In this document: piece by piece, positions 415-32,735 of the stretch
Layout: each line of letters opens with the position of its first letter
Position numbering within the stretch: position 1 is the first letter of the stretch
NCBI RefSeq assembly: GCF_037042905.1
Contig: NC_087246.1
Coordinates: forward strand, 13,780,233-13,844,232
Source: Lytechinus pictus
Lineage: Eukaryota
Reading direction: 5' to 3'
DNA: 64,000 bases
The notes under the pieces: model-generated
The model's database searches: none
Told to the model about the DNA's origin: nothing
What the model saw: only the letters and a program-made list of their open reading frames with translations
Program-made: the position numbers and the translations under genes

Positions 415-525
415 TTCATTCATGAGAGATAATACACTGAGTTTGCCCTCAATGGTCTGAAGACAAGGTTGGTTGTCACTGAAAGTACAGAAATTCCAAG
501 AAATTCCTTCCTTCTCATATTCTTC
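415..525 (-). CDS. MYO19: Myosin motor exon (EEYEKEGISWNFCTFSDNQPCLQTIEGKLSVLSLMNE). The gene continues beyond the window start.
   Basis: QEEY.KEGI.W.F..F.DNQPC..LIE motif. Acceptor ttgcag|, donor GAA|gtaagt. Anchored on ORF 355..552. Confidence 0.9.
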
Positions 526-1523
526 CTGCAAGTAACAAAAAATACATATCAATAATAATTAGATTAAACACATTAATATTAATATAGGTTGAGAGATTTC
601 ACATCTGCAGAATTAATAAAAGGCAGGCACAAGAAAAAAACATGTGACAAGTGACATTAGCATAAAAATGTATACAAATATGTATAAAATATCAATATAA
701 AAACATGATCCACTTGTTTTTTTATCTGTTTAAAGCTAGTGAGGCATCAATTTTATTCATGAATAGGAAAAAATAATTCAGTTTCTTCTGAATTTTACTT
801 AAAAAGAGAGCAATTGATTCAAGCCTATCTTAACAATTGAAAGCCAAAGACAAGAACAAATTTATCATCTAGAATTTACAATAGGTATATCCAGGCATCA
901 TGCTCTTAAAATGTACACTTGTGCATGTGTCATCAATTTGACCAATCAGCATGCTTTGTTTGTTACATGTGTACATTTCACGAACATCTAAATTAAGTAT
1001 AAGTATTAATGGCATAGCTAAATTTCCATATTTAAGATTGATTAGAGTCAATAACAATGCATAGAAAGAGGAAGCCCTGGTTACAAGCAGAGGTAACATA
1101 CACCCAGACATTGTGGCATGTATTCTCAAAAGAAGTTTGAATTGTACATGCTACAAAACCATGGTTTAGGCAAATTTCTCATATCACCACGCCTCCCTTC
1201 TAGCGCCCTTTGCCAAAAGAGCGCATTCCATTGGATTTTTCTTAGTGTACGCAATAAAATAAGCATAATTATTTACAAAAATCTGCATAGTCCATAATTT
1301 TGTACTATGGTACAATTGAAACCACTTTTAAAAAATATTGGCTTGTATGTCTTAACAGAGCAAACAGCTTGTTAAGTTAATCCTATTTCATAAACTTTCT
1401 TGAGAACTAGGTTTTCCAATACCTACAAGGCACAAATATATATGACTCAAGTATTATTTAAAATAAGAATCTTCAAATAAACCCAGGTGCAAATTTGTAA
1501 GGCCCCCTCCAATGTACTAGTAC

Positions 1524-1713
1524 CTGTTGAGCTCTCAAGAAGTGCATCACAAAGTGTTGCTGTAGTTTCTCATTAGCATAGTTGATACAGAGCTGCTCAA
1601 GACTGTTGCTGGCAAAGCTCTCAAACCCATAGATGTCCAGGAGACCTATGAAAGCATGCCACTGATTGGCCGATGTATGCTTGTTCAGGAAGGCAACCAA
1701 CCAGTCAAATAAT
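1524..1713 (-). CDS. MYO19: Myosin motor exon with switch II ([64 protein letters not shown]).
   Basis: LDIYGFE switch II and [19 protein letters not shown] motifs. Donor CAG|gtacta. Confidence 0.92.
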
Positions 1714-1799
1714 CTGTAAAAGTTGCAAGGGAAATATAAGATAAGCTGTAAAAATAATGTTTTTAGGGGCACTCAAATTTCATTGTTATTATAACAATT

Positions 1800-2132
1800 A
1801 GAATATATTATAGTCCCCTCCTCCACATCATAATCATCCCCATCACCACCATTATCATCATCATCATCATCATCATCATCACCATCATTCACCACCACCA
1901 TTATCATCACCATCATCATCACCACCATCACCACCATTATCATCATCATCATCATCACCACCATCACCACCACCATCACCACCATTATCATCATCATCAT
2001 CATCACCACCATCACCACCACCATCACCACCATTATCATCATCATCATCATCATTATCATCACCACCATCACCACCACCATTATCATCACCATCATCATC
2101 ATCATCAGAACCACCACCGTCATCACTTTCAC
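1800..2132. repeat. Minisatellite with a 48-bp period built from CAT/CAC triplets, about 7 units, in a myosin intron.
   Basis: The ORF-track translation shows a 16-aa periodic poly-M/V/I (plus strand) and poly-D/G/N (minus strand) artefact. Confidence 0.85.
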
Positions 2133-2318
2133 ATGTCACTAATGCAGCAGCAGCATTGTCGTCAACACCATCAACTTTATTATGAACCAAAGGAAAGTAT
2201 TGAATATTCTTGCTACCCAAAGTTCAAATTTCTATGCAAAGGGTACCCAAGTCTTTTGCCCTCTGTATGTCATAACTCTATATTTCCTTGCTCCTTCGTC
2301 CCTACTAAATAAACTCAC

Positions 2319-2505
2319 CGTGCATACATAACCTTTGACACGCAGTCCCTCCTCACACCAGCTTCCTCCACTGAGCATGGTTTCAAGAACACACTTTGGC
2401 GCTTGCTGTGTGATGCAGTGATGCGCCGGTAGATGAGAGATGTGGTCAGACTGGTAGGGTCCAGACCTAGCAGTCTACATGCATGCTCTAGGGATTCCTG
2501 GCACA
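2319..2505 (-). CDS. MYO19: Myosin motor exon (-CQESLEHACRLLGLDPTSLTTSLIYRRITASHSKRQSVFLKPCSVEEAGVRRDCVSKVMYA-).
   Basis: Collinear with MYO19 ASLLGL...RDCLAKLIYAR. Acceptor tcttttcag|, donor CG|gtgagt. Confidence 0.88.
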
Positions 2506-3272
2506 CTGAAAAGATAAAAAGCATTGTTTTTAAAAATTAATCTTTCCTAATTGTACATGTAGGTACCAACAATGATGGTAACTGGCAATCAATATGATCA
2601 ACAGTTTATACAACCCTTCTAAGCAGTCCTAAGCTCCAAATCATGACTTCAAAATAAATATTTATGACAAACTATATTTCATTCCCCCCCCCCCTTATTA
2701 TCTCAATTGAAACAATAATGTCTGTGAATTTGAATACATCAAATATCCTGGACTCTAACATTGTCTGTTTTAAATTGCATACTGTTTAAACAAAGCTAAT
2801 TCTTTACAACATAACAGCATACCTGACTAGCCCTCATGCTTTTCAAATATATAGGTAGACTATGCACATTACATACCAATTATTATACTTTGCTCAATTA
2901 ATGATAGCTTTAGAACTTTACACTGTCTCATAATACCCTTGTATAGAAACAAATACACACATAGTCGTCTTAGCCATTGAATCATGCCACTAAAGTTTAA
3001 CAATCCCTTAATTTCATTCATTAAAGCCTCTTAAAAAAAATTGGAAAATAGAAAAATTAAAACATTACCAAAAGGGAACTAAATATCCACAAATGTAAAA
3101 TTCAAATTTTCATACAGAATAAGTAGATGATGAAAGGTTTAGGGTTTCCAATGCTTAAATTGGAAGATTTCAATATTAGATGTTATCTAAATACCATTCA
3201 TTTTTATTGAAAATTAAGTAAAATCTGTAGATGAGCTTTAGGAGATAAGAATAGGATATGAATATCATTTAC

Positions 3273-3354
3273 CTTCCTCATCTAATTCACAAGGATCAAA
3301 TTCCTCATCACATGTAAACTCTAGATTGCCAAGATGAAGGATACCACTCAACAC
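3273..3354 (-). CDS. MYO19: Myosin motor exon (VLSGILHLGNLEFTCDEEFDPCELDEE-).
   Basis: ILHLGN.F motif of myosin motors. Acceptor tttgacag|, donor G|gtaaat. Confidence 0.85.
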
Positions 3355-3649
3355 CTGTCAAAGTAAAACATATTAACCCTGCAGTTCGTGAAAAGTACGG
3401 TACAACTGATAGAACAATAAAAAAGATAATGAAATGATAAGGTAAATACATGTATCTGATATTTTGTTTCAATTTGTGTTGGTTTTCTTTCTTTCTTTCT
3501 TTTTTTACCTGAAACCCACATATTTCTTGATCTTTATACATGATTACTTTTTCACAGTAACCCCATTCCTCCAATTTAAACAAAAAAATATTAAGTACAA
3601 CAGTTTGAATGTTTCCCCTCTTTCTCCCTGTCTATCTTTCAGTTTTCTT

Positions 3650-4200
3650 GCACTTTTTGCTAGATTACGGAAGTACATGACAGTTTCCAGTGCTGAACTA
3701 TTGGCAAATTCATTAGTTTTACCGCATCTCGAATACTGTTGCAATGCCTGGACCAACTGTAACCAAAACTTAAAGGACACTTTGATAAAACAGCACAAAC
3801 GAATGGCTCGACTGGTCTTGCAGGTAGACTATAATACACCTACTGCAGTAGTGTTTGGAAGATTAAATTGGGTACCACTTGAAGAACGATGGCGATTTCA
3901 AATGTGCAAAACTATGTTTAATTCTATGCAGGGCGAAGCCCCAGGTTACCTCTGAGATTTGTTCCCGGGATTTAGTTCTGTCCATTCCCATCATACTAGA
4001 AATGCATTGAACCGTGGAATCATGGTTCCACAGGCACGCACCAAAGCTGGTAAAAGAGCCTTCTCCCATCACGGTGCGTGCCTGTGGAATCAACTTCCTA
4101 ATGAAGTTAAAAACTCCTCGTCAAAATCTTCCTTTACATCGTCATATTGGAGGTATAGATACACCCATTTTAATATATAAGCAAGAATTATATTATTTTA
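3650..4200 (+). mobile_element. 5'-truncated CR1/L2-clade non-LTR retrotransposon (LINE) 3' fragment. Carries the RT C-terminal tail, with a frameshift.
   Basis: ORF 3464..3955 encodes LVLPHLEYCCNAW...LIKQHKRMARLV...GRLNWVPLEERW. ORF 3959..4180 encodes HTRNALNRGIMVPQARTKAGKRAFSHHGACLWNQLPNEVK. Both are hallmark C-terminal motifs of CR1-like ORF2. Lies in a myosin intron. Confidence 0.7.
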
Positions 4201-4582
4201 CTATAATATTGCATTATAGTGTAAATGGTGATGTGCCTTCTTCTCCCGCTCTAGCTCTCTGCCGTGTTCTTTTTTACCTCAATTCATCCTTACCCTCTAT
4301 CTTTCTTTCCCCTATTACTTTCTACTTGTAGCTCTGGGTTAAATAATTGTTCTCAATTTCACACACAATTTTCTGTTATTAGATTTATACTTGAAATTTC
4401 CATCTGTTTATGTTCAGGATTTGTATTTTCCATTTGTATTGTATATATGCTTGTATTTTGTTTTGTTTTATGTTATACATGGCCCCCAAGTACAACAGTA
4501 TTTAACTACTGATGGGGTTACCCTGTATAAATAATACCAAATAAATAAATAATAAATAAATAAAATAAATACATTTTCTCAC

Positions 4583-4780
4583 CTGAAATATATTTTCTTG
4601 GTGCATATGAGTAATGCCTACATTCTTCATAGCTTGCTGGGTTCTGCTAAATACTTGATTCTCATTGGCTCTTGACTGGATACCATCATCCAATGGGAGG
4701 TAAGCAAACATGACATCATCACCAGTGGGTGTGGTCAGACCCAATTCTGCCCTCTGTTCTTCTGTTGCCTCATTCACGAT
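4583..4780 (-). CDS. MYO19: Myosin motor exon (IVNEATEEQRAELGL...AMKNVGITHMHQENIFQ).
   Basis: Strong pyrimidine-rich acceptor cccttcaag|, donor CAG|gtgaga. Collinear with the MYO19 region EAMLHLGIDTPTQNNIFK. Confidence 0.85.
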
Positions 4781-5570
4781 CTTGAAGGGAAGGGCAAAAT
4801 GAAAAGTGAATTTATTTCTTAATGTAGCCCATTCATGAGACAACCAAATTTATCAATTTTGTTCAATATTTAAAAAGAAAGGAAACAAAGACTTTGTAAA
4901 GCAATGTTGAAAGATAACTTTAAAGGAAAACATAGAATTTCATCATATATAACCCAGCAAAACAACTCAATCCCCCCCCCCAAAAAAAAAAGTACAACCC
5001 CAAAACACTAGATTTCAAAGCCCGACTATTCTCAGAAATTTTTATAATCAACTTGTCTACACACAAGATATCTCTCCAAATGGACCATGGATTTTAAAAA
5101 GTTTAAAAATTATTTTAAGTTTATTAACTTTAAAGTTTCTGATACAGTATTTTGATAATGAAACCCAAACCAAGAGGATTTCTTTCCTGTATTGGTTATT
5201 GCATTATTCAGTCAGACCGCAGGTCCCTATGCTAATGAGCAAAAAGGCCAGATTCATCCAAATCATCTCGTGGCTGAATCCTCCTCTTTCTCTAAGAATT
5301 TACCTGTTTTAACCTCAAGTTATATGAAATATTATTACACCATCAGATAGAGTAAAAGTTACTTTTTCATATTGGTCATTTACTTTGTATACAATATTTT
5401 GTTAATTAAGTAAATTTCTGGCCTGAAAATGTGCCTTAAAACTGAATTTTCTTCCTCTGTTTTCTTTTGCAAATTGTGCAAAACTTTTTATTTTGAGCCT
5501 CAATGATATCTGTATCACCATAAAGCTGAACTTCTGTACTTTCTCACAATGCCAATCTTGATATGCGGCA

Positions 5571-5862
5571 CCTTTTAATCGGGTCAAGATCACACCTTTC
5601 CCACCAAGGTACAAGACGAGATTTCTGAAATTTTGCACTTGCAAGAAATCCAGAGTTCTGATTGGCTGGATAAGGTTCACAGAACAACAGGCGCGGTGTA
5701 TTTGAGGAGATTACCACATGGGAAGTGTGACCTTCCCACGAACACAGGCACTGGAACCGTTGGAATTTGCCATTGTGTGGTCTCTTTGACCAATCAGAGA
5801 GCAATATTCTTGTTTTCAAGCTGCTTTATGTACCTGGCAAATGAAAAATGTGATCTTGACCC
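5571..5862. mobile_element. MITE or foldback element with about 22-bp terminal inverted repeats (ttaatcgggtcaagatcacac ... gtgatcttgacccgattaaa).
   Basis: Near-perfect TIRs seen directly. Internal inverted CCAAT-like motifs (ctgattggctgg, accaatcagag). Intronic in the myosin gene. Confidence 0.55.
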
Positions 5863-6415
5863 GATTAAACCAATTCTTATTTTGAAACCTATATCATTTT
5901 AAAGCATACATATTCAGCTTTATCATGATATAAAAATCATTTGGGCTCAAACAAAAGTAAAGTGTGAAAATAGCAGCTTTTGTCAGGTGAAAATATTTAT
6001 TTTGTAGCATATTTTAGATTAAAATTTTAACCTATATTACAAAATCTTTGAATAAATCCAAACACATGACCTGAAAGAATTATTCTTATTCTTTACAATG
6101 GTACCAAATTCATGAAATTCGATGCACAATTAGAGCAGCAATGACCGAATGAAAAGAGGTGTTTTGGTCCGCATCAAGCTCATTAAATATGCAAAACATC
6201 TCAAGTCATGAATATAACTTGGATGAAAGAAGCCACTTTCTTGGGACCTGCAGTCTGACTGTATTACAATTAATAGACAAGAGTTGCTATTTTGCAATGT
6301 GTGTGTGAGGAGCACAAAACATGAATATGAAAATATGAATCCATCACACAGAAACATAGCCTACAGAAACATAGCCTTCCAAAACAGTCACTAGAGATTG
6401 CAGAACACTCCCTAC

Positions 6416-6518
6416 CTGGTAGAATATGTGAAAGTTGCTTTCTCCATCAGCCTGGTGAACAAGCCTAGTCTTCTCCAAGAGATATGTCTGGATAGAGGCA
6501 CCAATGATATGGGAACCC
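6416..6518 (-). CDS. MYO19: Myosin motor exon ([35 protein letters not shown]).
   Basis: YLLEKTR and NFHIFYQ myosin motifs. Bounds anchored on ORF 6344..6643. Donor CAG|gtaggg. Confidence 0.9.
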
Positions 6519-7099
6519 CTGGATGCAAAAAAAAATACAATCCCATTTTGAATAATTATGTATTGGCAAAATAAATCACACAAAAACAATGCATTCCATC
6601 CAAATACATTTAGATCAAAACAATATTGAATAATAGAAAACAAGAATAGTATACATATATACTAAGCTTTGTTATTAAATAAGTATGTAAATGTATACAA
6701 ATTTTTTCAATTTCTGTCTTACAATATCTGTAAGGAAAGGCCATAGTGAGGCACCGGGTGTAAAGAAGTACAAATCCCAGGCTGCTTTGAGGAATGGTGC
6801 CTAACGGATACGATCATTAGCTACATACAAATATGCTACAGCTATACATAGGATACCCTTTCCTGGAATCCCTCTTGTGATTTGTATTATCATACTACAT
6901 CACACATTCAGTATTTTGTTTCTTTCACCAATATTAAATATTTTATGATTTATGTCATATGATTTTGTGCTTTTGTCATTACCATGTTTGATTGTATAAA
7001 TTGTACTTCTTATTTTTGTGTGTATGGACCCTTACGAAAAACAGCATTCGCTGATAGGGTGTTCCATCCCACGAGTGGAAAATAAATAAAATATTGTGA

Positions 7100-8450
7100 C
7101 ATAGTAAAAAGGAAAGCATCATACAATGGCGAGGATATTCAAAACATACCAACGACTGCTACATCTACACGTTCTGAATCTGACTTGCCACAGTCAGATG
7201 CACAAGGGGTTTTGGAACGCTGGGGCATTTTTGTTCGACTGAGCAGAAAAGAATCAAATCATGTTCTTAAGACAGCAGCTTTGAAAAACTTCATAAAGTT
7301 GAAACAATTGAGCACAGCAATTTGCTCATAAAGTCTGCCAAGAATAAGTCAGATATGAGACGCAGCCAGCAAATACGTTGTCTTCCTTCTGAAGACTTAG
7401 TAGCAAAAGAGGCCCATTATCACAATACATACAGGTTAAAAATTCTCCAAGAAACAACAGCACACACAGGAAATATGGTACTCACAAGAATATCTCCAGT
7501 AAAAAGAAACATGACAAAACATTAAAAGAATTCGTGGCATATATTAACCAAACAGTAATTCAAAAATGTGTACCAAAGTACGCTCCCAAACTGATGGATT
7601 TCTACAAGGAAGAGTTCAGAGAATTGTGGGGATATGAGGAAGACACTTGTTACAATGTTTTTATCAGAAAGACAAAGAACAAGTTTGGTGAAAAACTGAT
7701 GGTTTAAAAAAAAAAAAAGAGTCAAACAAGGATGGAAATTTCCTGTATTCACAAGTATCAGTGTTGATGAAGCAAAGTTGCATTTGAAAAAACGTGAATG
7801 ACCAGGAAGACGCAATTCATTGCGCAGGTCTTATCTGGTTCTCAGGTCTGAGATTCTCCAGATGGAATCGACAAAAACACACACACCCACATCACTAAAA
7901 ATTTTGAAAGACAGTGCACCTGGTATACCTCATATGACCAAGATATTCTTTTAAACATTGACAAGTGGTTTGTCCCCTTTCACCTGTGAAGAAAGACACT
8001 GTGTCTATTTCCTTGATTTTACATTTCATAAGTATGGAGAGTAGCCAATGACATAAGCAAGACATGGGAAGGAAGGTATGCCTGTCAAATATTTTAGTCT
8101 TATTTTCTGTCCTCTATGAAGTGGCTCTTCGAAGCTATACACGATTGGTACATGCAGAAGAGATGTGAGGCCATGGAAGCACACCTCCTTAGGTTTGTCA
8201 CCAATGCTTGGATCAAAGACAGCAATAACTGTGTTCAATCGTCTTGGTCATACAGTAAATTACTATGACTGCAAACGTTTAGAGACAAAGATAGCATACA
8301 CATGCTGCATCCGGAGACCTGGATACTCCTGCTGGTTTAAATCTGGAAACTTCTTTAGCTACAGGTATGCTGCGCATGATTTTGAACCAATCCTAAATTT
8401 TCTTGTTGGCCAGAAATACACATAAATCGAACATTAACGGGAAGCAGTAG
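7100..8450 (+). pseudogene. Decayed coding remnant (frameshifted ORF pieces), probably a transposon-derived or processed pseudogene fragment inside a myosin intron.
   Basis: Three frame-shifted coding-like stretches: 7322..7525, 7560..7707 (VPKYAPKLMDFYKEEFRELWGYEEDTCYNVFIRKTKNKFGEKLMV) and 8165..8425 (ITVFNRLGHTVNYYDCKRLETKIAYTCCIRRPGY). No splice-site support. Confidence 0.25.
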
Positions 8451-8637
8451 AGTTGAAAACCAAGTTATAGAGTACTCACAAACCAAATTAACTTTCACTC
8501 CTCGCAGACCAGTTACTGATATATAGGTACAGGGAGAGAGCATCTCTTAGCAACTGCAAATCTTCACACAAAATAGGTTAACATTCAGATTGTCTTCTTT
8601 CTCTTTCTCTTCTTCTTCTTCTTCCCCTCCCTCTTAC

Positions 8638-8707
8638 CTGTCAAACTGTAGCTGTATATACTTTCCAAACCTACTGCTGTTGTGATTCCGGGCTGTACCA
8701 GCATTGC
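8638..8707 (-). CDS. MYO19: Myosin motor exon (-NAGTARNHNSSRFGKYIQLQFD-).
   Basis: NxNSSRFGK switch I signature. Donor AG|gtaaga. Confidence 0.9.
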
Positions 8708-8834
8708 CTGGCAAAAAACAAAATTGATTTAAAAAACATTTGACCAGATACCCTAGAATAAGTTCACGCTCTCAAAAGCTAATAACAGAATGTTCTTCCT
8801 ACTGAAGCTGAGGTCTTTTCATGTCCAGGGGGCA

Positions 8835-9005
8835 TATCATGAAGCTGTTCACAAATTACGAATAACTTTAAGATCAACTTGTAATCCTTTCTTGTGGTGA
8901 ATGATATTCACCATTAAATGTTCATTGGTGATTATTTAGCGTGTAAGAAAGGTTCACCAGTCATTCTCAAAGTCACTCTCAACTTACGAACAGCTTTATG
9001 AAACA
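8835..9005. mobile_element. MITE copy (family with TIR gtttcataaagctgttcgtaagtt). Diverged copy of the element at 16106-16280.
   Basis: Shares the terminal ...cttacgaacagctttatgaaac and the internal aaaggatcaccagtca / ctttcttgtggtgaat core with the 16.1-kb copy. Confidence 0.55.
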
Positions 9006-9256
9006 CCCACCTGTAAAGAATACAAGTGTTTTTTTTCATAAGGCAATGATAGAGAGTGTTCTTGTAGTTCAGTAGGGTTCTTGTAATTATATGCAGGTAG
9101 AAAAGACTGCAAAAGGGGCGATAACATGACAAAAGTAAAGAGGATCCTACTGGATGAGAATAAAAATAGAGTTCTAGAAAAAATCAAAGAAATCGAACCA
9201 ATGAGGATCACACTAATATTATTTATTGAGGTATGAGATATAAGGAAGTTACTTAC

Positions 9257-9330
9257 CAAATGCTTCAAGGATGGGATTAGAATCCAATATCCTTCTCTCG
9301 ATGCACTTCACAGGTGGAGGTGAAAAGCCC
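9257..9330 (-). CDS. MYO19: Myosin motor exon (GFSPPPVKCIERRILDSNPILEAF-).
   Basis: NPILEAFGNA motif (switch I region). Consensus splice sites ttttag| and |gtaagt. Confidence 0.88.
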
Positions 9331-9682
9331 CTAAAATAAATAAATGTATAATGAAATGTAAGCACAGTGATAATGAATATTGGAGAGAAGCAATGATCTG
9401 CCAAAATTTTCAAAATTGTACATGTAATATTATGTATTCTACATTCAACTTCATGTTAATAAAAATAAGAGCATCCTTCAATATACATCATGCATGGAAT
9501 ATCAATGTGCAAAATAAACTTTTTGAGAGCGTGATTCCAAATTTGTCTGTCCATTGTCACATTTTGTACATGTAGATAAATATCTGTAATAACGAATCTT
9601 CAATCAATAAATTCTCAAGAAAAGATATACAGTATAATGTAACAAAAGATGGAAGAAAGAACAAACAAATGATATCTCTTAC

Positions 9683-9744
9683 CCTGGATTTTTATATAGT
9701 GCCACTGAAGTGAGATATTTCATCAAACACCTGGTGTTCCAAGT
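9683..9744 (-). CDS. MYO19: Myosin motor exon (TWNTRCLMKYLTSVALYKNP-).
   Basis: Continues the P-loop as GAGK|TWNTRCLMK, which compares with the MYO19 GKTWTSRCLMK motif. Acceptor atag, donor GG|gtaaga. Confidence 0.8.
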
Positions 9745-10518
9745 CTATGGATCAAAACAAACACTGAATTTTGGCCAAAAGTTTCAAATTTATAGCCTCA
9801 GAATACATAAATCTAAAATACTACATGACTTAATTAAAAATGTAAATCTGTTCAATGTTTACATGTTTAAGTAAATTGAGTACACTACAAAATGTGGCAT
9901 TTCCTGTAAGAGCAAAAAATTGGTGTCTGTCTAAACCATGTCTTACCTTATACCTCTCATTAGGAAAGTGGTCATGCTTGAAATTAGGCCACGAAATTAA
10001 GCAAAAAGGTAAAATGTGAAGAAAAAAAATTCTTTAACTCAAATTTGGCTGATACATAAAGGCTGCATGTGATTCAACCAACACTTCTTACTTACCCTAA
10101 AAACACGGCTTTCAAATAATTTTAGTTTAAATCATGTGTGCATTCAACTAATTTTTTGTGTGACATTAAAGAATGAGCATTTTTTTAAAGCACAGCCACA
10201 ACATTCTGTCTAATCAAAAGGCAAATTCTATTAACAGAATACAACAGAGATCTAAATTATGATTTTTTGTATAGAACCATGAGCATTTCTTCAGATTGAC
10301 ATGGAATATATACACTCTCAGATTGTCCTTTACTTTCTTATCAAAGTTAAACTCACTAATCTACAACGCGATTTTGGTGGGCTTGAAATAGTGTGATTGA
10401 AAGCTCTACTAACGTTAGCGTTATTTGTGTTTGTGTGTTGATTTGTAATTAATGTTTGTATGCCTTCTAAATGACTTGGATCCAATTTTCTTAAGAAAGA
10501 CAGAATAGATCTCTTTAC

Positions 10519-10632
10519 CTTCCCAGCTCCACTCTCTCCACTGACGATAATGGACTGGTTGGGGTTACCTATGGCATAGCGAAGACTAGAAAAGGCTTTC
10601 TCAGCAACAGCAAACACATGTGGGGCTTCCCC
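10519..10632 (-). CDS. MYO19: Myosin motor exon with P-loop (GEAPHVFAVAEKAFSSLRYAIGNPNQSIIVSGESGAGK).
   Basis: PHVFAVAE plus the NQSIIVSGESGAGK(T) Walker A motif of myosins. Donor AAG|gtaaag. Confidence 0.9.
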
Positions 10633-11077
10633 CTATTTAATCAAGCAAAATCATATTGGAATTATTGAATAATTTCATGTTAGTGGACTGGTAATAGGCA
10701 ATCAAATATCAAATATACAATGTTATTTAGTGGGTACAATTCAGAAATGTGTGAACATTAAATGAAAGTAATTAGTGACAACTCATCTGTTTTTATTGTC
10801 AGTTGACCTGTATTACCTGTCCAATGCCTAAACTTCATATACCTATCAAATATAAACTGACTCATTTTCTAAGTTTTTCTTTTCCATTCTTATAAAATCT
10901 TCCACCATTTTAATTTTTATGTTAAGCTACCATACAATTCAAAGGTGAATGCAGTTAACAAACTTGAGCTCCGAATTCAAATACCTCCTAGAACCTTCTA
11001 GAAAAATCATGGAATATATAATAATTTTCCTTATATAATAAGAATGTAAAATATTTTGAAATGTATAGATATCTCAC

Positions 11078-11238
11078 CTTCAATGTTTGGTCACTAGTTT
11101 GATCTTGATGGTATTGTTGAATGGCAGTATCATCATATAAACCAGAGATTTCCTTGAATGGATTCAGACTGACTAGAGTTTCACCTGCTTTACTGCAGAT
11201 CTGACCGTTATGGAATCTGCACTCCAGACTCTCTAATA
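11078..11238 (-). CDS. MYO19: Myosin motor exon (VLESLECRFHNGQICSKAGETLVSLNPFKEISGLYDDTAIQQYHQDQTSDQTLK).
   Basis: Conserved myosin motif T.AG.TLVxLNPFK...LY....YH. Acceptor caatag, donor AAG|gtgaga. Phases match the neighbouring exons. Confidence 0.85.
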
Positions 11239-11861
11239 CTATTGGAAGAAAGAAACAAGAGAATTTTAGGCATCTTACCAAATTTCTGTGCTGTTTCTTA
11301 CAAATCCTACTATAAGGGTGCTCAGCATCTTTCACAGCGATCTCCTGCTTTTCTCATTGTGCTGTCTTTGAAGAATGCAGAAATTTAAACTTAAATGCCA
11401 GTTTGTAATGATCTAGAACAACGCTTTTCAACCTTTTTTTTATTCAACGACCACTCTGACTCTCAGATTTTTTTTTAGCGCTGATCTAGAAAAGAGTTTG
11501 AATAGAATCAAATGAAATTATCACCAGTTATGCCGAATGATTCTGGGAGAAAATGTGTCTGCTGATTAATTGACAAAACAAGCATGGTATTCGAGCTAGA
11601 TATTGGGTCTTTTTTTTTCAAACAATAATAATAATACGCTGTCCCAAATTGTTTTGGTGATCAATAGTACCTTCATCTTTTCAGCTTAGAGTTAGTGATT
11701 TCACAGAGTTAGGTTTAAACCAGATCTAGACCTACCATGATACGGTTGCAATTAACCTTGGTTTTACAAACTTTCCCATGAAATCCTTTATGGCCTTTAA
11801 TCATCATATTGTACATATATACTACTATATATAACTACAAAAAACACAGTGTACACTATAC

Positions 11862-11967
11862 CTTCGGCCTCATTGAGCGATGAAAGATTTGTTAGGTCAT
11901 CCACTTCTGCATAGTTGTTGTTTCCAGCTAGAAGCAGTGAATCTTCTCTTCGTGAAACATCAATGAC
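11862..11967 (-). CDS. MYO19: Myosin exon (VIDVSRREDSLLLAGNNNYAEVDDLTNLSSLNEAE-).
   Basis: Acceptor attcag|GTC, donor GAAG|gtatag. The DDLT...L motif sits just upstream of the motor core, as in MYO19 (YKLDDLTRVNPVTLE). Confidence 0.8.
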
Positions 11968-12666
11968 CTGAATATGTATCATTGAAAATATATCAGAATT
12001 CCCCTATACTCTATATATGCAAGGATACATGTAGGTTTTTTTTATGATGACACTATTCTGTGTTCTAATTAATTTTTCAGCCATAGTATTACTCTAAAAC
12101 TATGCTCATAGTCCCATACATATTGAACTAGGAGCAACATTGATAGACTAAAATATTATATAATATGGTAAATGTTTTATTGCATATTTCATATGTAATT
12201 TGTTTTGTTTCATCAAGTGATTGTTGAAATTTGGCATCTAAGCATCTAAAACCCCTTCATCTGATTGGCTAAGAGTAAATCTGTCCAAAAAATCAATGGC
12301 AATATTTTTCATGAAAACACTAGTCAATATTGTGGCAGTTCCTGAATAACTGAAGAAAGTTTAACATCATAAGATTGATTATGAACAAGGTAATAAATTT
12401 ATATTCCATCCACCATGCCACAATATTGAATGTTGCTTTTAGATGCACAGACTACAACACATTATTTCTTTTACAATAGAATTGCAATTTGAAATATTTC
12501 AGTTGGCTCGATTTACTTATACGAGTGAATCTGATTAAAATATAAAAATACTGACTTCAGTGTATATCACAAAAAGACACAAATGTCTTGAATCCTTAAC
12601 AATCCCTAAAGTCTGTTGTGATCATCAATAGTGGATATTTCAAATCATTTAAGTTTCTGTTCTTAC

Positions 12667-12783
12667 CTCACTGCTTTCCAATCTCACACTCACTTTCCCA
12701 TTCTTTCTTGCTGCTGTGACGGTACCTCTTAGCCAGGGGCAGTTGTCTTCTGTATTGCTGTTAGCAACCCATACTCTCATACC
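12667..12783 (-). CDS. MYO19: Myosin exon (G-MRVWVANSNTEDNCPWLRGTVTAARKNGKVSVRLESSE). Alternative start ATG at 12780..12778 if the upstream exons are UTR.
   Basis: Acceptor ttacag|GGT, donor GAG|gtaaga. N-terminal region resembling the myosin head start (RVW...). Phase-compatible with the next exon. Confidence 0.75.
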
Positions 12784-13029
12784 CTGTAAACAATTTCGAA
12801 TATGATAATTACATGTAGTTCCAGAATTGCCATAGTATGATATTTTTTTCTTCAAAACTGATGTAAAATTAATACATACAACTAAAAACAAGATAAGACA
12901 ATCCAGGCATCTTTATTGAAACAGATAAAGAATATAAAGACCTGTGAGTTAAGTTGAAATAAACCGCTTGTAATAATCAAGTACCGGTATGCTTAAATTT
13001 TTCAAAACTGACATTTCAGAAGGGCAAAC

Positions 13030-13210
13030 CAAATTATAAAGATTATTTACTCATCATCATCATAATCATCATCTTCACTGTTTTCATAATAATTAACAAT
13101 CATCATCACAATCATCACTTATCATAGTCAACATAATCACCTTCATCATCATTATCCTCATTAGTCATTATCCTCATCATCATCATCAACATCATCATTA
13201 ACATTTTTGT
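13030..13210. repeat. Imperfect (ATC/ATCATCACA)n microsatellite in a myosin intron.
   Basis: Read directly. Confidence 0.7.
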
Positions 13211-14361
13211 TCTTTATCAGTTGTAGATGTGGTTGTTTTGATGCTTCTGTTACCATTAATGCAGTTGTCATTAGTATCATTGTAATTTAAAGGGGAATTC
13301 CCAACAAAAAGTTGGTTTGAGTAAAAAGAGAATGATTTAACAAGCATAACACTGAAAATTTCATTCAAATTGAAAGCTACATGTATGACATTTTAAAGTT
13401 TTGCTTAATATCACTAAACAGTCATTTGTAAATCCTGGTCATTATGCGAATGAGGGAGCCAATGATAATACCTACTATTTCTTTTATATATCATTACATG
13501 AAATATTAAATAAACCAATATTCTCCTCATTGTAATGTGAAACAAACTTTGATTCCTCCCAGGATTTGTGCACTTGCCATTGTTGTAACCTACAGGCATT
13601 GTGATTTGATGAAGAGTCTCATCATTGTCAAATGAAGTTAGTCTTCTGTGCAAACACATCACCCAAGTTACATGTAAGTTGTCTGAATCTCGAGTTAAGT
13701 GGTTTGAATATGCAGCCTGAAATGACTTGTGTACTGAAGGCCCTCTTGAAAAAGCAAGCTTTATGTGCTAGTCTTGTGTAAAAATCCATTTAATAACCAA
13801 AGTTACTATCAGGGAGTGTGCCTGCACGCTATGTCAAATCAGAATTTAAATAATGATATATTTTTAAATTCATAAGTTAAATTCAAAAGAAATGAGTGAG
13901 TGAGTAAGTGACATTGACTCGCTTATTTGATATTGTAGTGATGTGCTTACATGTAACTGCAATGTGGATAAATAAGCAAAATTCTAAATCGTCATAACTT
14001 TCATCTTCCACATCAAATTAAGATATTTTCAGCATCATGCTCATTTGATTTTCTCTTTTTATTTGAATAAACATTTGGGGTGGACTTCCCTTATTTATAC
14101 TAATTTTTTGTTGGCAGTGTTGTTGCTAAAGTGTTTCAAGTGCAACAAACAACTTTAGACTCTCGAACATCTTACATGTAAGTCTTATTCGACTCATTGT
14201 ACCTATGATAGCTGCCTTCTGAATTTGTACAATCATAGATGAGGAGATATTATTGTTGTTATCATTATTATTACCAAAACATCATGATTATGATCATTAA
14301 TATTATCAATTATAAAAAAAGTGACTGATTTCATCATATAAAAAATAAACAATACAGCTTA

Positions 14362-14430
14362 CCTCTTGGAAACATCTTTTTGGTTGTTTTACAGGTGGTG
14401 CAGGAGCTTTAGAATTTTTCTTTGATGGCT
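14362..14430 (-). CDS. MYO19: Putative myosin coding exon 2 (KPSKKNSKAPAPPVKQPKRCFQE), 69 nt, phase 0/0.
   Basis: Acceptor tatag|AAG and donor GAG|gtaagc. Open frame continuous with the flanking exons. In-frame stop immediately upstream of the acceptor. Confidence 0.4.
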
Positions 14431-15329
14431 TCTATATTTATCAATCAAGAAGAAGGAATGAAGCAGTAAATTTAAACAAAATGAAAAAAAAACATTAAAA
14501 ATCTGCATGAAACCAACACAAAAAACACTGAAAAATAAATGTTCATTTAGTTTTTCCTTCTTTATTTCAGGGCTGCGGGGGCAGAATGTTTATGTACAAT
14601 TGATGTTAGATTCTCTATAGAAAGTTCTTTTGCTGAAGTTAGCTTCTGTTCTTGAAGTTAATAGACCAATATCTTTTTAATAATAAAAAGAAAATTTGGC
14701 CAACTCTAGTCATAATATGTACAGTATCATGTATTCTGTATCATTCATGGTGCAAGTTTGATGAATTTTAAGAAAATATTGTGTTTGATATGACTGAATT
14801 CATGAAAAGTGTAATCCACTGACACAGGAACCAGGCACTCATTCAATGAACAAGGTTATGATTTTCCATGCTAGCTAACAGAATTCTTATTTTGTAAAAA
14901 TTTTGATATTCTTATAAACTCGCGAGAGTAGACCTAATTATAGAAGAACGTTTCGTTAAGGTTTTTATTCTTTTGACAAAAAAAACAAAAAGGAAAAACA
15001 ATGAAGTTATACACCCTCCCTTTTCTCATTTCGCTTTTTCTTTTCCCCCTTTTTTTTTTGGGGGGGGGACCTTTTCGAGGGGCACCGCCCCCTGGCTCGC
15101 GCCTACAAGATGAAGAGACGAGCGAGCAAAAATTTGTGTCACTTTTATTGCAAATATCAATTTTGTGATAGATTTTGACATAACATTCAAAATGTAATAT
15201 GTCACTCTTTTTTCCTTTTCTCTATTTTTTTTATAAGGGCGCAACTGATCTCGGGATGATTCTCGCATGCATTTTTCTTAATCTTTCCTTCCGCTTTCGT
15301 TTTTTTTATGTGTTGTATTTGGCCTTTTA

Positions 15330-15450
15330 TTTCTCTTCCCTTTCCCTTTTTCTCTCTCCCCCTCTCTCTCTTTCTTTCTCTCTCGATCTCTTTCTTTCTT
15401 TCTTTCTTTTTTTTTCTTTCTTTCTTTCTAATTTCCCTCATCTTGTCCCA
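15330..15450. repeat. CT-rich microsatellite, (TCTTTC)n / (CT)n.
   Basis: Read directly. Responsible for the spurious ORFs 15199..15496. Confidence 0.8.
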
Positions 15451-16105
15451 TTTTTTTTATTTTTTTTTCCCTGTGGACACTTTTTTTTTTAATTAGAATA
15501 CTAAAAGCATTCCATATGCACCCCCAATGATCAGTCTAGTAAGAAACCTTTCATTTTTGCCATTCATAGTGAAATAATTTTTATCCCTTCATACGCATGC
15601 ACGCATTAGACGTTTGAAAATAAAAATTCACACTTATAAACCGATTTCACCCTGTAAATATGGATTTCCTTGGGAAATCCATCCGGGTGTGGACAACTCG
15701 CTTATGCATGTATGGAAAGAGTTTCAATTCAAGGCTCCATGATGAAAATCTATAGGCCCTATGTCAAAATATTAAAAATATCATCACGGATGATGGAGTC
15801 CTGACTCCTAATCTAAGTTAGTCCTCAGGCTCAAGCCTAATTCTACCCCATTTTTGGAGAGTATGCTCCCTCTGCCTAATACTATTACACGGACGAGTCC
15901 TGGGCTCCGTCCCGCAAAGCAGGCCAGAGCTCCCTCGGTTACAATCCACCTAACTGGCGTTTTTTATTCGCTCTCATAATCGATTATGACATTGCCAATA
16001 TTATTTTGCCACACTCCCTCACTGTCTCACCCAAGGGTTCATTACATGCCGCCGCGCACAGAAAAATCAAGCCATACAGTGAGTGTCACTGTCTGTGACC
16101 GGGTG

Positions 16106-16280
16106 GGTGTTTCATAAAGCTGTTCGTAAGTTAAGAGTGACTTTAAAGTTTAAGAACGACTGGTTATCCTTTCTTATGCGCTAAATAATCACCAACATAT
16201 AATGGTGAACATTATTTACCACAAGAAAGGATCACCAGTCAAAGTCGCTCTTATTAACTTACGAACAGCTTTATGAAACG
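16106..16280. mobile_element. MITE with perfect 26-bp terminal inverted repeats (gtttcataaagctgttcgtaagttaa ... ttaacttacgaacagctttatgaaac).
   Basis: Perfect TIRs read directly. About 175 bp, non-coding. In the putative first intron of the myosin gene. Confidence 0.7.
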
Positions 16281-16406
16281 GTCATGACGGTAGGCCTACC
16301 CAATTGGGTCCGTAAATCAAATGTATGAACTATGGGACCGTGCAGGGCTCTTCGATTTGAATTTCCCAGTAATTTCATCCCAAATACACAAAAATTGAAA
16401 ACTTAC

Positions 16407-16493
16407 TTTGTCATGAGTAGAAGAGTCATTTAAGCTCTTCTTTTCTTGAGTAAGAGGAATATTTGAAAATCGTTCACGCAAAACGCCTGCCAT
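16407..16493 (-). CDS. MYO19: Putative first coding exon of the myosin gene (MAGVLRERFSNIPLTQEKKSLNDSSTHDK). ATG at 16493..16491 in Kozak context atcATGG; donor AAA|gtaagt.
   Basis: Consensus donor. Ends in phase 0 and reads in frame through the next two exons (14362-14430, then 12667-12783) into the myosin motor, which adds a 52-aa basic N-terminal extension. Three consecutive in-frame junctions are unlikely by chance. Confidence 0.45.
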
Positions 16494-16789
16494 GATGACG
16501 TGAAGTAATGCCGATGCTTCCGAATTTATTTTCAAATCTCGCGTCTCAATTCTCAAATGCAAACAAGTGATCGTGAGGGCGACATAAAATACTGGTTCAA
16601 CAGTTCAGTATCAAAGGTCGAAATTTTTTCAAGCCCAATACTTCTAAAGGGGGGGGGGGTGTAAGCAGATCCAGCCGGGGGACGAAGCGGCTTGTTCTTT
16701 ATCCAACACTGTGCTTAATTTCGACATTTTTATTCCAAAAATCCCATTTTGTGATAGATTCTGACATGATTTACAGAAAGTACACCATA

Positions 16790-17335
16790 TTTTGCCCTTC
16801 TCCAGTAGTGTTTACCTAGGATTTTTCACAGGGGGGGGGGGGGCAAAACCGTCCGCCAAAAAATTTGACAAGCAAAAAAAAAAAAAAAAAAAAGAGCTTC
16901 AAGCTCGTCAGGGGGGGCAAGAAAGGTTTTCAAGCTCGTCAAGGGGGCAAAAAAGGTCTTTCAAGCTCGTCAGGGGGGCAGAGATACGTCCTTTGCATGG
17001 GTTGTGGCTCGTCAGGGGGGGGGGCAGACTGCCCCCTCTGCCCCGCCCCCATAGGTACGCTAGTGCCCTTCTCCCTTTCCTTTTCTTTCCTTCTCTTTTT
17101 CTTGGTCGTGATTTTTTTTTGGGGGGGCGAGCATTCCCGAGTCCACATCCCCCCATCTGTAGGCCCGGCTTCACTACGGCCTTGTTCATGATTACATCTA
17201 AGTTCCAACACTTTCTCCATGTTATTTTGGCGGATCCAGGATTTTTCGAAAGGGGGGGGGGCACATTTTCCCCGAGGAAAAATTTGACAAGCTGTGCCCC
17301 CCCCCCCCTGGATCCGCTAGTGGTTCATGACAGTT
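16790..17335. repeat. Composite G/C-homopolymer-bounded repeat element. Contains the dispersed motif aaatttgacaagc+polyA twice, a 3x tandem approximately 30-bp unit (caagctcgtcagggggg), and a hairpin gcggatccagg...cctggatccgc.
   Basis: Read directly. G14 at 16830, A23 at 16877, C13 at 17297. Same family as 57940-58215. Confidence 0.5.
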
Positions 17336-17584
17336 GACACGGTTGGATTTACATCACTTTCTGTATTTCTATGTATAATTTTTTTGATATTTTGGGTTTT
17401 TATCTGTCCGTAGGCCTATATGTACTGCAACTATATCAAATTTAAAAAAAAATTGTGATTTTTATTTTTGCATTCATATTTGATTTTGAGAATATCAACG
17501 ATTTTTGTTGTTATCTTTGTTTTTATTGATTGATTGATTGGTTGGGATTTTTTACCTGATAGCTAAGAAAGCATGAATGCTTGT

Positions 17585-30128: not shown

Positions 30129-30468
30129 GTAGGATTGACTCTCCTGTGTCCTGTAAAATAGATAATAGAATCATAGAATCTTAATTTGTAACAATTTTAA
30201 GTCTATGGCAAACCCTGTATCACATGTACCTGACATGATACTTACATGTATGTATTATCTAGCTTATCATTTTATTGAAAATAATTTGCATTCCAGCAAG
30301 ATATTAGTAACAAACATACAAAGTAAATATTATTACTTTTGTATCATTCTTTTAGGAACGTTTTTACTAGAATTTCAAATGTTTAATTTTTGATTAAAAA
30401 ATAAATATTGGTTGGAGGCCTTCATTAAGCTATGATTTCTGAACTTCTCTCCCTCTCAATCTCTGTAG

Positions 30469-30664
30469 GGTCATCTTCGGTCCCGAGAAGATGATCACCA
30501 TCCCTCCTAGGCATTACTGTATTGTAGAGAACCCTGTGGTCAGGAATGATGCTGGTCAGGTTGTCTTTGATGGTCTTGGACAGGTCAAGCTATCCCATGC
30601 TGACCAGGAGATCAGGTTAGCCAGGGAACCATTCCCTCTCTACCCAGGAGAAGTATTGAAGCAG
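30469..30664 (+). CDS. MVP: MVP exon 2 ([66 protein letters not shown]).
   Basis: Near-identical to human [23 protein letters not shown]...[19 protein letters not shown]. Acceptor ctctgtag|, donor CAG|gtgaga. Confidence 0.93.
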
Positions 30665-31178
30665 GTGAGATTGGACTTATCTTTACTTTGCCTTGATTTT
30701 GTCTTTAATATTTCATTTGAGAATTGTTCATATATATCTTACCTGTTATTAAACTCAGTTCAGTCTGTTGTACCTTTGGCTCGATTGGACATTTAGTTGA
30801 TACAGTCATACACTTTTTAGTGTCAATTCTATCTATCCTTCCCTCATACATTATTGCTAAGTCAGCAGGTCACAGAAGTTGCATCCAAAATTTAAAATGG
30901 CCTATTTCTAGGTTATTCATCTCATATTTGGGGGATTTTTTTTTTCAATGATAATTTCTAAAAGTTACACTTTGTCCAATTCCCAGCTTAAAAATAACTT
31001 ACTTTGCGATGTCAAAGGGAATGCTATCCCATTGGTTATATAGTATTATTTTGGTCAGGTTTTTTTTTTAGCATCCCAAACTTCTTGAGATACAAAGCTT
31101 TGTTGCCCCAAATTCAAATTAAAATACTATCCATCCACTTTTATCTTAACTGGCTTACACTTCAATTTTTTCCATCAG

Positions 31179-31526
31179 GCTGTGACTGCCTTGAAGGTTG
31201 TCCAGGCCAACGCTGCCCTTAGGCTCCGAGCCATCCTTGACTTCGAGGAAGGTACCCAGAAGCGCGTCGCTGGCGACGAGTGGCTCTTCGAGGGACCCGG
31301 TACCTACATCCCCCGCAAGGAAGTGGTGGTGGACGAGACCATCAGGGCAACCATCATCAGACCTAACCAGGCTATCAAGCTTAGGGCTCGTAAGGAAACC
31401 AAAGATAGGGAAGGCAATACTAGGGTTACTGGTGAGGAGTGGCAGGTGAAGAAGGTTGGTGCCTACCTCCCTGGGGCATATGAGGAGGTGGTCGATACCG
31501 TCAATGCCTACGTGCTCACAGAAAAG
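31179..31526 (+). CDS. MVP: MVP exon 3 ([25 protein letters not shown]...[34 protein letters not shown]).
   Basis: Vault repeat domains. Motifs [20 protein letters not shown] and RVTGEEW are conserved with human MVP. Anchored on ORF 31182..31559. Confidence 0.93.
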
Positions 31527-32624: not shown

Positions 32625-32735
32625 GGTTGTAAGAGTTGTAGACATCAACACATTGACCAATCGCCAGTACTGTGTCATCGTGGACCCTGTCGGGGCCGAT
32701 GGAAAACCACAGCTTGGACAGAAGAGATTAATCAA
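32625..32735 (+). CDS. MVP: MVP exon 5 ([37 protein letters not shown]).
   Basis: Matches human [37 protein letters not shown]. Confidence 0.92.

Follow-up and report, generated by a model that had tools for sequence, protein, structure and literature searches.

In the 64,000-nt stretch of Lytechinus pictus DNA that was analyzed (hereafter the window), one open frame of 577 codons can be assembled on the minus strand from 15 coding exons, with GT-AG boundaries at all introns (Table 1). We consider it likely that a sea urchin orthologue of myosin-XIX (MYO19) lies here, with translation starting at the ATG at 16493, and that this frame makes up the 5' part, about 55%, of its coding sequence. 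Thirteen of the exons (12783..415) form the motor part. The initial annotation had already placed them on the minus strand with consistent phases, and this model holds, as the boundaries are exact and all 13 exons are matched by echinoderm MYO19 proteins in tblastn searches. These exons encode a probable divergent SH3-like N-terminal subdomain, followed by the motor core up to and including switch II and the next helix. Pfam matches to Myosin_N in the N-terminal part are sub-threshold; E1 is probably part of the SH3-like domain, and from the Met of MRVWV onward the protein is 77% identical to Diadema P0123. The E9 exon has a counterpart in Diadema and is missing from the partial model of S. 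purpuratus. As had been reported, the gene leaves the window at coordinate 1, and the rest of the motor is encoded nowhere in the window downstream of the E13 donor.

Table 1. Coding exons and sequence landmarks of the MYO19-like gene, in window coordinates
Feature	Position	Strand	Description
L1, leader exon	16407..16493	-	87 nt, 29 codons MAGVLRERFSNIPLTQEKKSLNDSSTHDK; ATG at 16493, context ATCATGG
MAGVLRERF	16493..16467	-	
L2, leader exon	14363..14431	-	69 nt, 23 codons KPSKKNSKAPAPPVKQPKRCFQE; phase 0/0
E1	12667..12783	-	GMRVWVANSNTEDNCPWLRGTVTAARKNGKVSVRLESSE; begins GGT ATG; alternative start ATG at 12780
MRVWV	12780..12766	-	
E2	11862..11967	-	VIDVSRREDSLLLAGNNNYAEVDDLTNLSSLNEAE; GT-AG boundaries, Diadema alignment
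E3	11078..11238	-	VLESLECRFHNGQICSKAGETLVSLNPFKEISGLYDDTAIQQYHQDQTSDQTLK; Pfam Myosin_head begins here; tblastn
E4	10519..10632	-	GEAPHVF...NQSIIVSGESGAGK; P-loop; tblastn
E5	9683..9744	-	TWNTRCLMKYLTSVALYKNP(G); source of the class-typical W after GKT; tblastn with sea cucumber and crinoid MYO19
E6	9257..9330	-	GFSPPPVKCIERRILDSNPILEAF(G); tblastn
E7	8638..8707	-	NAGTARNHNSSRFGKYIQLQFD(R); switch I; tblastn
E8	6416..6518	-	YLLEKTR 6484..6464 and NFHIFYQ 6436..6416; tblastn, motif positions
E9	4583..4780	-	66 codons, phase 0/0, IVNEATEEQRAELGL...HQENIFQ
E10	3273..3354	-	VLSGILHLGNLEFTCDEEFDPCELDEE; tblastn
E11	2319..2505	-	VCQESLEHACRLLGLD...RRDCVSKVMYA(R); tblastn
E12	1524..1713	-	switch II; LFDWLV 1712..1695; further motifs 1652..1614, 1607..1551
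E13	415..525	-	EEYEKEGISWNFCTFSDNQPCLQTIEGKLSVLSLMNE; donor gtaagt at 414; tblastn

Upstream of the motor part, the L1 and L2 exons together encode a leader of 52 residues that is rich in Lys, Ser and Pro, carries a net charge of +7 and looks disordered. It is in frame with E1 and is followed by a Gly and then by MRVWV. L1 ends in phase 0 at the donor AAA/GTAAGT, and L2 is bounded by the acceptor ...aaatatag/ and the donor GAG/GTAAGC. Both exons exist with consensus splice sites as the initial annotation described them, except that its position for L2 (14430..14362) was off by one base; the basic leader itself was quoted exactly, with phase 0 throughout and continuity with E1. Only one L1-type candidate, L1 itself, was found in 128 kb (both strands) under criteria set post hoc (a Kozak ATG, an ORF of at least 60 nt and a perfect in-phase donor). 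About 1.7 L2-like internal exons per 7.2 kb are expected by chance, and L2 is therefore validated only through cross-species comparison.

Homologous basic leaders of 41–49 residues, with an M[AS]x[VI]L start and the same Gly after them, are present in the RefSeq models of Diadema antillarum (XP_071476468.1), Saccoglossus kowalevskii (XP_002739436.3) and Amphiura filiformis (XP_072043255.1), in agreement with the three-exon, in-frame N-terminal extension that had been proposed from the window. In the D. antillarum protein, the 993-aa form that starts with MRVWV is preceded by MASILRELQ...PPVTKPKRCFQKG, encoded by the same two-exon leader as in the window and ending in PKRCFQxG. The similarity between the window and Diadema leaders corresponds to z = 9.3–9.6 (0/5000 shuffles); for Saccoglossus p = 0.02–0.03, and for Amphiura p = 0.05, which is marginal on its own, and both of these leaders have the M[AS]x[VI]L start and terminal G in common with the window. 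The sizes of the two leader exons are 87/69 nt in the window, 75/72 in D. antillarum, 72/51 in Amphiura and 75/54 in Saccoglossus, all in phase 0, and the intron positions of both exons are the same in all four lineages. The next exon begins with GGN in each case (GGT ATG, GGC ATG, GGA GTG and GGT ATG, respectively), and the net charge of the leader is between +5 and +9 in all four. The window thus has every element of the ambulacrarian long form: two small phase-0 exons, M[AS]x[VI]L, the Gly exon and [MV]x[VI]W[VI].

The Diadema homologue of L2, VQKNGQKVVPRKPPVTKPKRCFQK, has the same phase and position as in the window. Over the last 14 codons of L2, 10 residues are conserved between the two species, 7 of these 10 through differing synonymous codons. 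Between D. antillarum and D. setosum, L1, L2 and E1 are free of indels, whereas the flanks contain 19–71 gap positions; both leader exons are intact in D. setosum, although they are unannotated there. This pattern of substitution shows constraint at the level of the protein. Since other sea urchins, a brittle star and an acorn worm keep these two small coding exons, the leader is very probably real.

The most likely translation start, judged from these comparisons, is the ATG at 16493, which would give MAGVLRERF...PKRCFQE-G-MRVWV and make the conserved Met at 12780 internal, at least in the main isoform. The leader would then be transcribed and translated in this species, from a promoter predicted immediately upstream of 16.5 kb, where a block without CpG depletion has its edge. 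CpG depletion of the gene-body type covers the sequence from position 1 to a point 2 kb beyond the upstream end of E1; it stops at about 14.7 kb, between the two leader exons.

A rather doubtful alternative, which overlaps with the preferred reading, is that both forms are made, the long one from a promoter upstream of L1 and the short one from MRVWV, either by an internal promoter in the L2–E1 intron or by leaky scanning. The internal Met is retained in echinoids and Saccoglossus, in an adequate context (G at −3), and long and short RefSeq models exist side by side in D. antillarum. However, these two models lie on different contigs and may therefore reflect haplotig annotation differences rather than isoforms, and the 12.8–14.7 kb region is CpG-depleted and AT-rich like the gene body and unlike the 15–25 kb block. 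Amphiura, moreover, has GTG (Val) where the window has the internal ATG; no short form can start there, which makes the upstream start obligatory in that species.

The absence of this Met from Amphiura also speaks against the less probable reading that the ATG at 12780 is the only start, with L1 and L2 being either 5'-UTR exons whose frame is incidental or no exons at all in this species. We regard this as distinctly unlikely, although several public models, D. antillarum XP_071497110.1, D. setosum XP_072163532.1 and an older Saccoglossus version, begin at the conserved internal Met. The distance from the N-terminus to the P-loop is 158 residues when counted from MRVWV and 211 with the leader; among 119 other MYO19 proteins the median is 131 and all but four fall within 105–162, so only the shorter value is inside the usual range. 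When it is trained only on the motor exons, codon-usage scoring also rates L1 and L2 as intron-like, a score that varies with the training set. On the other side, in an mRNA that contains L1, the first ATG reached by a scanning ribosome is the one at 16493, in strong context and at the head of an in-frame, stop-free sequence. Frame, intron phases and positions of the two exons are kept from echinoids to a hemichordate, conserved residues are encoded by changed synonymous codons in exons that lack the indels of their flanks, and D. setosum keeps the leader exons despite its annotation.

The motor itself matches the Pfam Myosin_head profile (PF00063) with E = 2.1e-144 and 482.8 bits, which excludes chance; residues 113–577 align with profile positions 1–446 of 679, and the match is partial because the gene leaves the window. 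The catalytic motifs of the myosin superfamily are intact (GESGAGKT in the P-loop, NHNSSRFGK in switch I and LDIYGFE in switch II). Assignment of the motor to class XIX, with the neck and tail outside the window, is supported by database names, phylogeny and diagnostic residues. Among the best 120 database matches, every one that carries a class name is a myosin-XIX; the named representatives P0121–P0131 are XIX or XIX-like except for three generic names, and Sycon, Penaeus and Phallusia are also XIX. In a neighbor-joining tree (444 columns, 156 sequences), the window protein is the sister of Diadema in 200/200 bootstraps and forms a clade with human MYO19 and Diadema XP_071476468.1 and XP_071497110.1, without any of 109 class-V/XI-type representatives, likewise in 200/200; as the 150 nearest representatives were sampled, classes beyond V/XI are covered only via their lower PDB scores. 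The members of this clade are named XIX from sponge to human, and the outgroups are named myosin V, Myo2 or Chara myosin. The window motor is 77% identical to that of Diadema and about 49% identical to that of human MYO19.

At six positions that discriminate XIX from V/XI, the window has the XIX state in 6/6, in common with MYO19 (GKT-W, EK-T-R, N-F-HIF, FIG-L-LD, NS-L-EQ-L): W after GKT (56% in XIX vs 0% in V/XI), T in EKTR (100% vs 6%), F in NFHIF (88% vs 7%), L in FIGLLD (88% vs 5%) and the two L in NSLEQL (100% vs 4% and 100% vs 22%). The class XIX call of the initial annotation is supported by this comparison. The motifs on which it was based are real and all on the minus strand, but LFDWLV does not discriminate XIX from V/XI. 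The GKTW that it placed after the P-loop is present in the protein but split in the DNA by an intron (GESGAGK ends E4 at 10519 and TWNTRCLMKYL starts E5 at 9744), and the sole contiguous GKTW, at 9947..9936, is a chance match inside an intron.

That the motor belongs to class V or to another class, and is itself merely MYO19-like, is extremely improbable. Myosin Va (1w8j/7plt) is the best-matching solved structure, and its 339 bits, though only that, are little below the scores of vertebrate MYO19; this is consistent with the published phylogeny, in which class V is the sister class of class XIX (PMC3942036). The IQ neck and the tail lie outside the window. Nevertheless, the V/XI-type sequences are separated from the window protein in every bootstrap and differ from it at the six positions, no other class is named among the best 120 matches, and the 77%-identical Diadema orthologue has only about 1,000 aa, as is the case for MYO19. 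Class V myosins comprise 1,500–1,800 aa, with a long coiled coil and a DIL globular tail. They have an N-terminal SH3-like subdomain, for which the counterpart in the window protein gives sub-threshold matches only. A decayed or assembly-damaged pseudogene is just as improbable: only the 5' half of the gene is visible, and in S. purpuratus the partial RefSeq fragment is missing the N-terminus as well as one exon, but 15/15 exons are open, in phase and GT-AG flanked, GESGAGKT, NSSRFGK and DIYGFE are intact, and the 77% identity to Diadema extends without frameshifts.

Vertebrate MYO19 works on actin as a monomeric motor and is anchored to the outer membrane of mitochondria. The parts that define MYO19 function, the neck and the MyMOMA-containing tail, lie outside the window. 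The neck is short, with a variable number of IQ motifs (PMC3942036); some orthologues carry precomputed PF00612 matches, and the neck of the window gene lies beyond coordinate 1. The tail contains a basic MyMOMA region, through which the protein is directed to the mitochondrial outer membrane, according to Hawthorne et al. 2016 as cited in PMC13249394. With about 131 residues to the P-loop, the N-termini of vertebrate MYO19 are shorter, and they align neither with the ambulacrarian leader nor with the MRVWV/SH3-like segment, and the SH3-like subdomain behind the leader appears to be missing from the vertebrate protein. Separately, the N-termini of Nematostella (RPSTKSKKPPIPPPKRLLQK) and Penaeus MYO19 perhaps echo the ambulacrarian leader.

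The short, basic, Pro/Lys-rich leader ahead of the motor, with its presumed disorder, can be likened to the N-terminal extensions of Myo18A and other myosins, purely as an analogy of possible mechanism. Long essential light chains have a Lys- and Ala/Pro-rich N-terminal extension. By this analogy, a flexible basic arm in front of the SH3-like domain could serve as a regulatory element or an electrostatic tether. A more speculative and rather unlikely view is that the leader is an ancient, functionally constrained MYO19 module that modulates the motor or adds a second electrostatic contact, with actin, a membrane or a partner. If so, studies of vertebrate MYO19 would miss a regulatory element of the ancestral protein.

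Public annotation already contains both the MYO19 family and the leader. As the comparison shows, echinoderms and hemichordates have conserved the long N-terminal form, so the D. setosum model XP_072163532.1, one D. antillarum model, the older Saccoglossus model and the partial S. purpuratus model are probably truncated or incomplete. The main value of the finding lies in annotation, and the long form is advised for expressing echinoderm MYO19 or comparing MYO19 N-termini. The biological point is modest: the MYO19 of invertebrate deuterostomes has two parts that are not obvious in the well-studied vertebrate protein, an additional basic arm at the N-terminus and a probable SH3-like subdomain.

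The window holds, on the minus strand of 415..16493, the 5′ part of a MYO19 (unconventional myosin-XIX) gene, for which 15 exons with exact boundaries were delineated: two small leader exons (L1 and L2) and the motor-side exons E1–E13. All introns are GT-AG with consistent phases, and the joined exons form a single open frame of 577 codons (524 from MRVWV, an alternative internal start in E1 with its ATG at 12780). No further MYO19 sequence was found in the window beyond the E13 donor at 414. The initial annotation had described a myosin gene with upstream exons, which was confirmed, and every motif that it quoted was found in the window. It had correctly recognized the L2 exon but placed it one base off, and the residues of its "GKTW" motif are present but split by the E4/E5 intron (GESGAGK / TWNTRCLMKYL). 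The one uninterrupted GKTW in the region (9947..9936) is fortuitous and lies inside this intron, and 9944..9892 ("TWFRQTPIF...") was ruled out as the post-P-loop exon, which echinoderm homologues put at 9744..9683.

Exon model of the MYO19 gene in the window (window coordinates)
Exon	Position	Strand
L1	16493-16407	-
L2	14431-14363	-
E1	12783-12667	-
E2	11967-11862	-
E3	11238-11078	-
E4	10632-10519	-
E5	9744-9683	-
E6	9330-9257	-
E7	8707-8638	-
E8	6518-6416	-
E9	4780-4583	-
E10	3354-3273	-
E11	2505-2319	-
E12	1713-1524	-
E13	525-415	-

In the partial S. purpuratus model XP_011673030.1 (P0002), ...NFHIFYQ is joined straight to VLSGILHLGN, without E9 (4583-4780). This exon of 66 codons (phase 0/0) is present in Diadema and a sea cucumber; its skipping would keep the reading frame, and its absence from the S. 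purpuratus model reflects incomplete annotation more probably than a genuine cassette exon. Degenerate long trinucleotide arrays, reading as poly-Asp/Gly or poly-Met/Val depending on frame, lie in the E11-E12 intron (1776-2223) and the L2-E1 intron (~13040-13230).

Pfam analysis of the window protein detected Myosin_head only (E = 2.1e-144, residues 113-577, profile positions 1-446 of 679), so the window covers about two-thirds of a myosin motor, from its N-terminal end. As read from its sequence, this part is an intact N-terminal half of a myosin-XIX-type motor with canonical nucleotide-binding elements. Against 5.8 billion proteins, a search gave 5,296 matches at E <= 1e-10. The closest, among the best 120, were echinoderms, and among these 120 no named match was assigned to a class other than myosin-XIX/MYO19. 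In a separate, exhaustive HMMER search, the sea-cucumber homologue P0001 served as a proxy for the spliced window model. It gave full-length relatives whose identity to the window model is 77% in Diadema antillarum, 56% in Amphiura filiformis and 51% in Saccoglossus kowalevskii, and others in Holothuria leucospilota, Nematostella, lamprey, Styela and molluscs. They are named myosin-XIX or XIX-like, except for three generic records (lamprey, two bivalves). Because the top solved structure, myosin Va (339 bits), scored not far below vertebrate MYO19 proteins, a tree was built (NJ, Kimura distances, 156 sequences, 444 columns, sampling limited to the 150 nearest representatives). In 200/200 bootstraps, the window protein and human MYO19 were on a branch without any of the 109 members of the outgroup cluster (named members: "myosin V", fungal "Myosin type-2 heavy chain 1" and a Chara myosin), and Diadema was the sister of the window protein, also in 200/200. 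This split-based test replaced the exact 33-member NJ clade, which had a support of 17/100 because some named XIX sequences (sponge, shrimp) sit outside it. The placement agrees with a published analysis, in which myosin XIX is a close relative of myosin V, found in eumetazoans and ichthyosporeans, with a variable number of IQ motifs (PMC3942036). In the alignment used for the tree, six positions separate XIX from V/XI, and the window protein has the XIX state at all six: the W that follows GKT, the T of EKTR, the F of NFHIF, the L of FIGLLD and the two L of NSLEQL. The motif argument of the initial annotation holds for these positions but not for LFDWLV, which does not discriminate. Taken from the split and the motif positions, the gene almost certainly belongs to class XIX, as had been proposed. 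The support is for the motor part of the protein; the IQ neck and the function-defining MyMOMA tail (the basic region that targets the mitochondrial outer membrane) lie outside the window.

The leader encoded by L1 and L2 is a basic stretch of 52 residues, followed by Gly and MRVWV. The ATG that opens L1 has a strong context (ATCATGG), and the donor of this exon is perfect (AAA/GTAAGT). L1, L2 and E1 are each in phase 0 and single-copy in the window, and direct L1-to-E1 splicing would also be in frame. Leader-region peptides of the model include AGVLRER (N-terminus), SLNDSSTHDKKPSK and CFQEGMR (across the L2/E1 junction). Within the 7.2 kb upstream of E1, only two candidate exons start with ATG, lack stops, are in phase and have a donor of at least 5/6; L1 alone reaches 6/6. 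Kozak context, an ORF of at least 60 nt and a 6/6 donor coincide once in the whole window on both strands, at L1, and 0.006 times per 7.2 kb in Markov simulations, these criteria having been set after L1 was seen. L2-like internal exons are expected by chance at ~1.7 per 7.2 kb, so L2 is unremarkable by itself, and the outcome of the codon-usage log-likelihood for L1/L2 flips with the training set. CpG observed/expected is 0.1-0.5 over 1 to ~14.7 kb and 0.65-1.2 over 15-25 kb; a gene-body-like domain thus reaches 2 kb upstream of E1 and stops between L2 and L1. This fits, indirectly, with a promoter near 16.5 kb, although CpG-depleted intergenic stretches also occur (e.g. 25-29 kb).

Comparison with sequences of other Ambulacraria decides the leader question. 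In Diadema, the protein cluster contains a 993-aa form that starts with MRVWV and a 1,043-aa form (XP_071476468.1) that is the same protein with MASILRELQPNDADKRVSASSQNNKVQKNGQKVVPRKPPVTKPKRCFQKG in front. The current Saccoglossus record XP_002739436.3 has MATVLGEAV...ERSKIYAKG preceding MKIWV, and the Amphiura protein starts with MSGILQPVT...KPKERKYRRG, followed by VCVWI; as Amphiura has no Met at the position of MRVWV, its start must be upstream. The leaders of all four species have a net charge of +5 to +9. In shuffling tests, the window leader aligned with that of Diadema at z = 9.3-9.6 (0/5000 shuffles), with that of Saccoglossus at p ~0.02-0.03 and with that of Amphiura at p ~0.05. When the loci of the relatives were retrieved and their leader exons mapped, the first coding exon was 72-87 nt and the second 51-72 nt in every species, both in phase 0, and the next exon opened with a Gly codon (GGT ATG in both the window and Saccoglossus, GGC ATG in Diadema, GGA GTG in Amphiura). 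This shared layout indicates that the intron positions are conserved in echinoids, an ophiuroid and a hemichordate. In D. setosum (OZ188189.1), both leader exons are intact (3691-3774 and 9323-9397 of the retrieved locus, L002) upstream of the annotated MRVWL start. The upstream exons could alternatively be untranslated. However, D. antillarum and D. setosum differ by zero indels in L1, L2 and E1, against 19-71 gap positions in the flanking 400 bp, and between the window and Diadema the synonymous codons differ at 7/10 conserved residues among the final 14 codons of the leader and at 3/6 among the first 11. Such a pattern is the mark of selection on protein rather than on untranslated RNA. The conserved leader, exon phases and intron positions support the in-frame three-exon extension that had been suggested, and the leader is likely translated.

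Some observations speak against the leader. Several public models begin at the internal Met, which is conserved in echinoids and Saccoglossus, and a short isoform, arising from an internal promoter or leaky scanning, may exist as well. With the leader, the distance from the N-terminus to the P-loop is 211 residues, above all but one of 119 MYO19 proteins (median 131), and from MRVWV it is 158. The first 146 aa gave zero matches in a word-indexed protein search, whose index evidently lacks the proteins of Diadema, Amphiura and Saccoglossus. Shuffle tests of the N-termini of a sea cucumber, a coral and a nemertean against E1 or the leader were not significant in either direction; those of the sea cucumber and the coral are too diverged to be informative, and the MAFFT alignment of this region was unreliable. 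The PPxK-PKR core of the leader is similar to parts of the MYO19 N-termini of Nematostella and Penaeus, which is suggestive only, as p = 0.002-0.03 for Nematostella, Penaeus and P0187 was the best of 270 comparisons and fails multiple-testing correction. Nothing relevant on urchin MYO19 or a MYO19 N-terminal extension was found in the literature.

Directly upstream of L1, and not including it, is a repeat-like block (16650-17350) that contains long homopolymer runs of C/G and T/A and, three times over, a ~30-nt unit, (ccc)tgacgagcttgaa...; a 43-nt segment of it recurs in the L1-L2 intron (15140-15181, 86% identity). Across the window (1-64000), CpG is depleted (0.1-0.5) at 1-14.7 and 25-58 kb and near-undepleted (0.65-1.2, peaks up to 1.6) at 15-25 and 59-64 kb, a sharp domain structure consistent with mosaic gene-body methylation. 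The major vault protein (MVP) gene (30443-39000, plus strand) lies head-to-head with MYO19, ~14 kb from L1; its ORF pieces match the Pfam families Vault_2 (E = 1.3e-25, at 30443-30793) and Vault (E = 2.2e-34, at 31089-31556), with more MVP-like pieces up to ~39 kb. The upstream gene is INTU-like with Intu_longin in Amphiura (L003 locus, 1-2530) and GST in Saccoglossus (L004 locus, 1-2573); with no conserved 5′ microsynteny among these species, the neighbours give no promoter clue. Very long minus-strand open frames at 50935-53160 and 54355-55563 (742 and 403 codons), with a Ser/Lys/Pro/Asp-rich, low-complexity product and no Pfam match, are probably large exons of one uncharacterised gene.

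As MYO19 is a familiar gene family and RefSeq already includes the long form from related species, the finding is ordinary; in practice it serves to correct the annotation of several gene models in echinoderms and hemichordates. D. setosum XP_072163532.1/XP_072164205.1 are probably N-terminally truncated, because intact leader exons lie upstream of their annotated start; truncation is also probable for D. antillarum XP_071497110.1 and for Saccoglossus XP_002739436.2, a superseded record. From N- to C-terminus, the predicted protein comprises the conserved basic leader, the E1-E2 segment (11862-12783) with SH3-like Pfam Myosin_N matches below threshold (E = 0.28 in the window, 4e-4 in Amphiura), and the motor. 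In vertebrates, MYO19 has a shorter N-terminus, which gave no alignment with the E1-E2 segment of the window and its orthologues. By family knowledge, the complete protein would be a monomeric actin motor whose tail attaches it to mitochondria; speculatively, the Lys/Pro-rich leader could be a flexible basic arm that modulates the motor or adds an electrostatic contact. At the C-termini of the MYO19-like proteins P0271 and P0272 (Diadema) and P0274 (Saccoglossus) is a conserved hydrophobic stretch resembling a tail-anchor (PAVDIALIGAVTALLITGPLRWT / PAVDVVLAATMVGLVFHGPLRF). If it is one, membrane attachment in these proteins would be unlike that through the vertebrate MyMOMA region.
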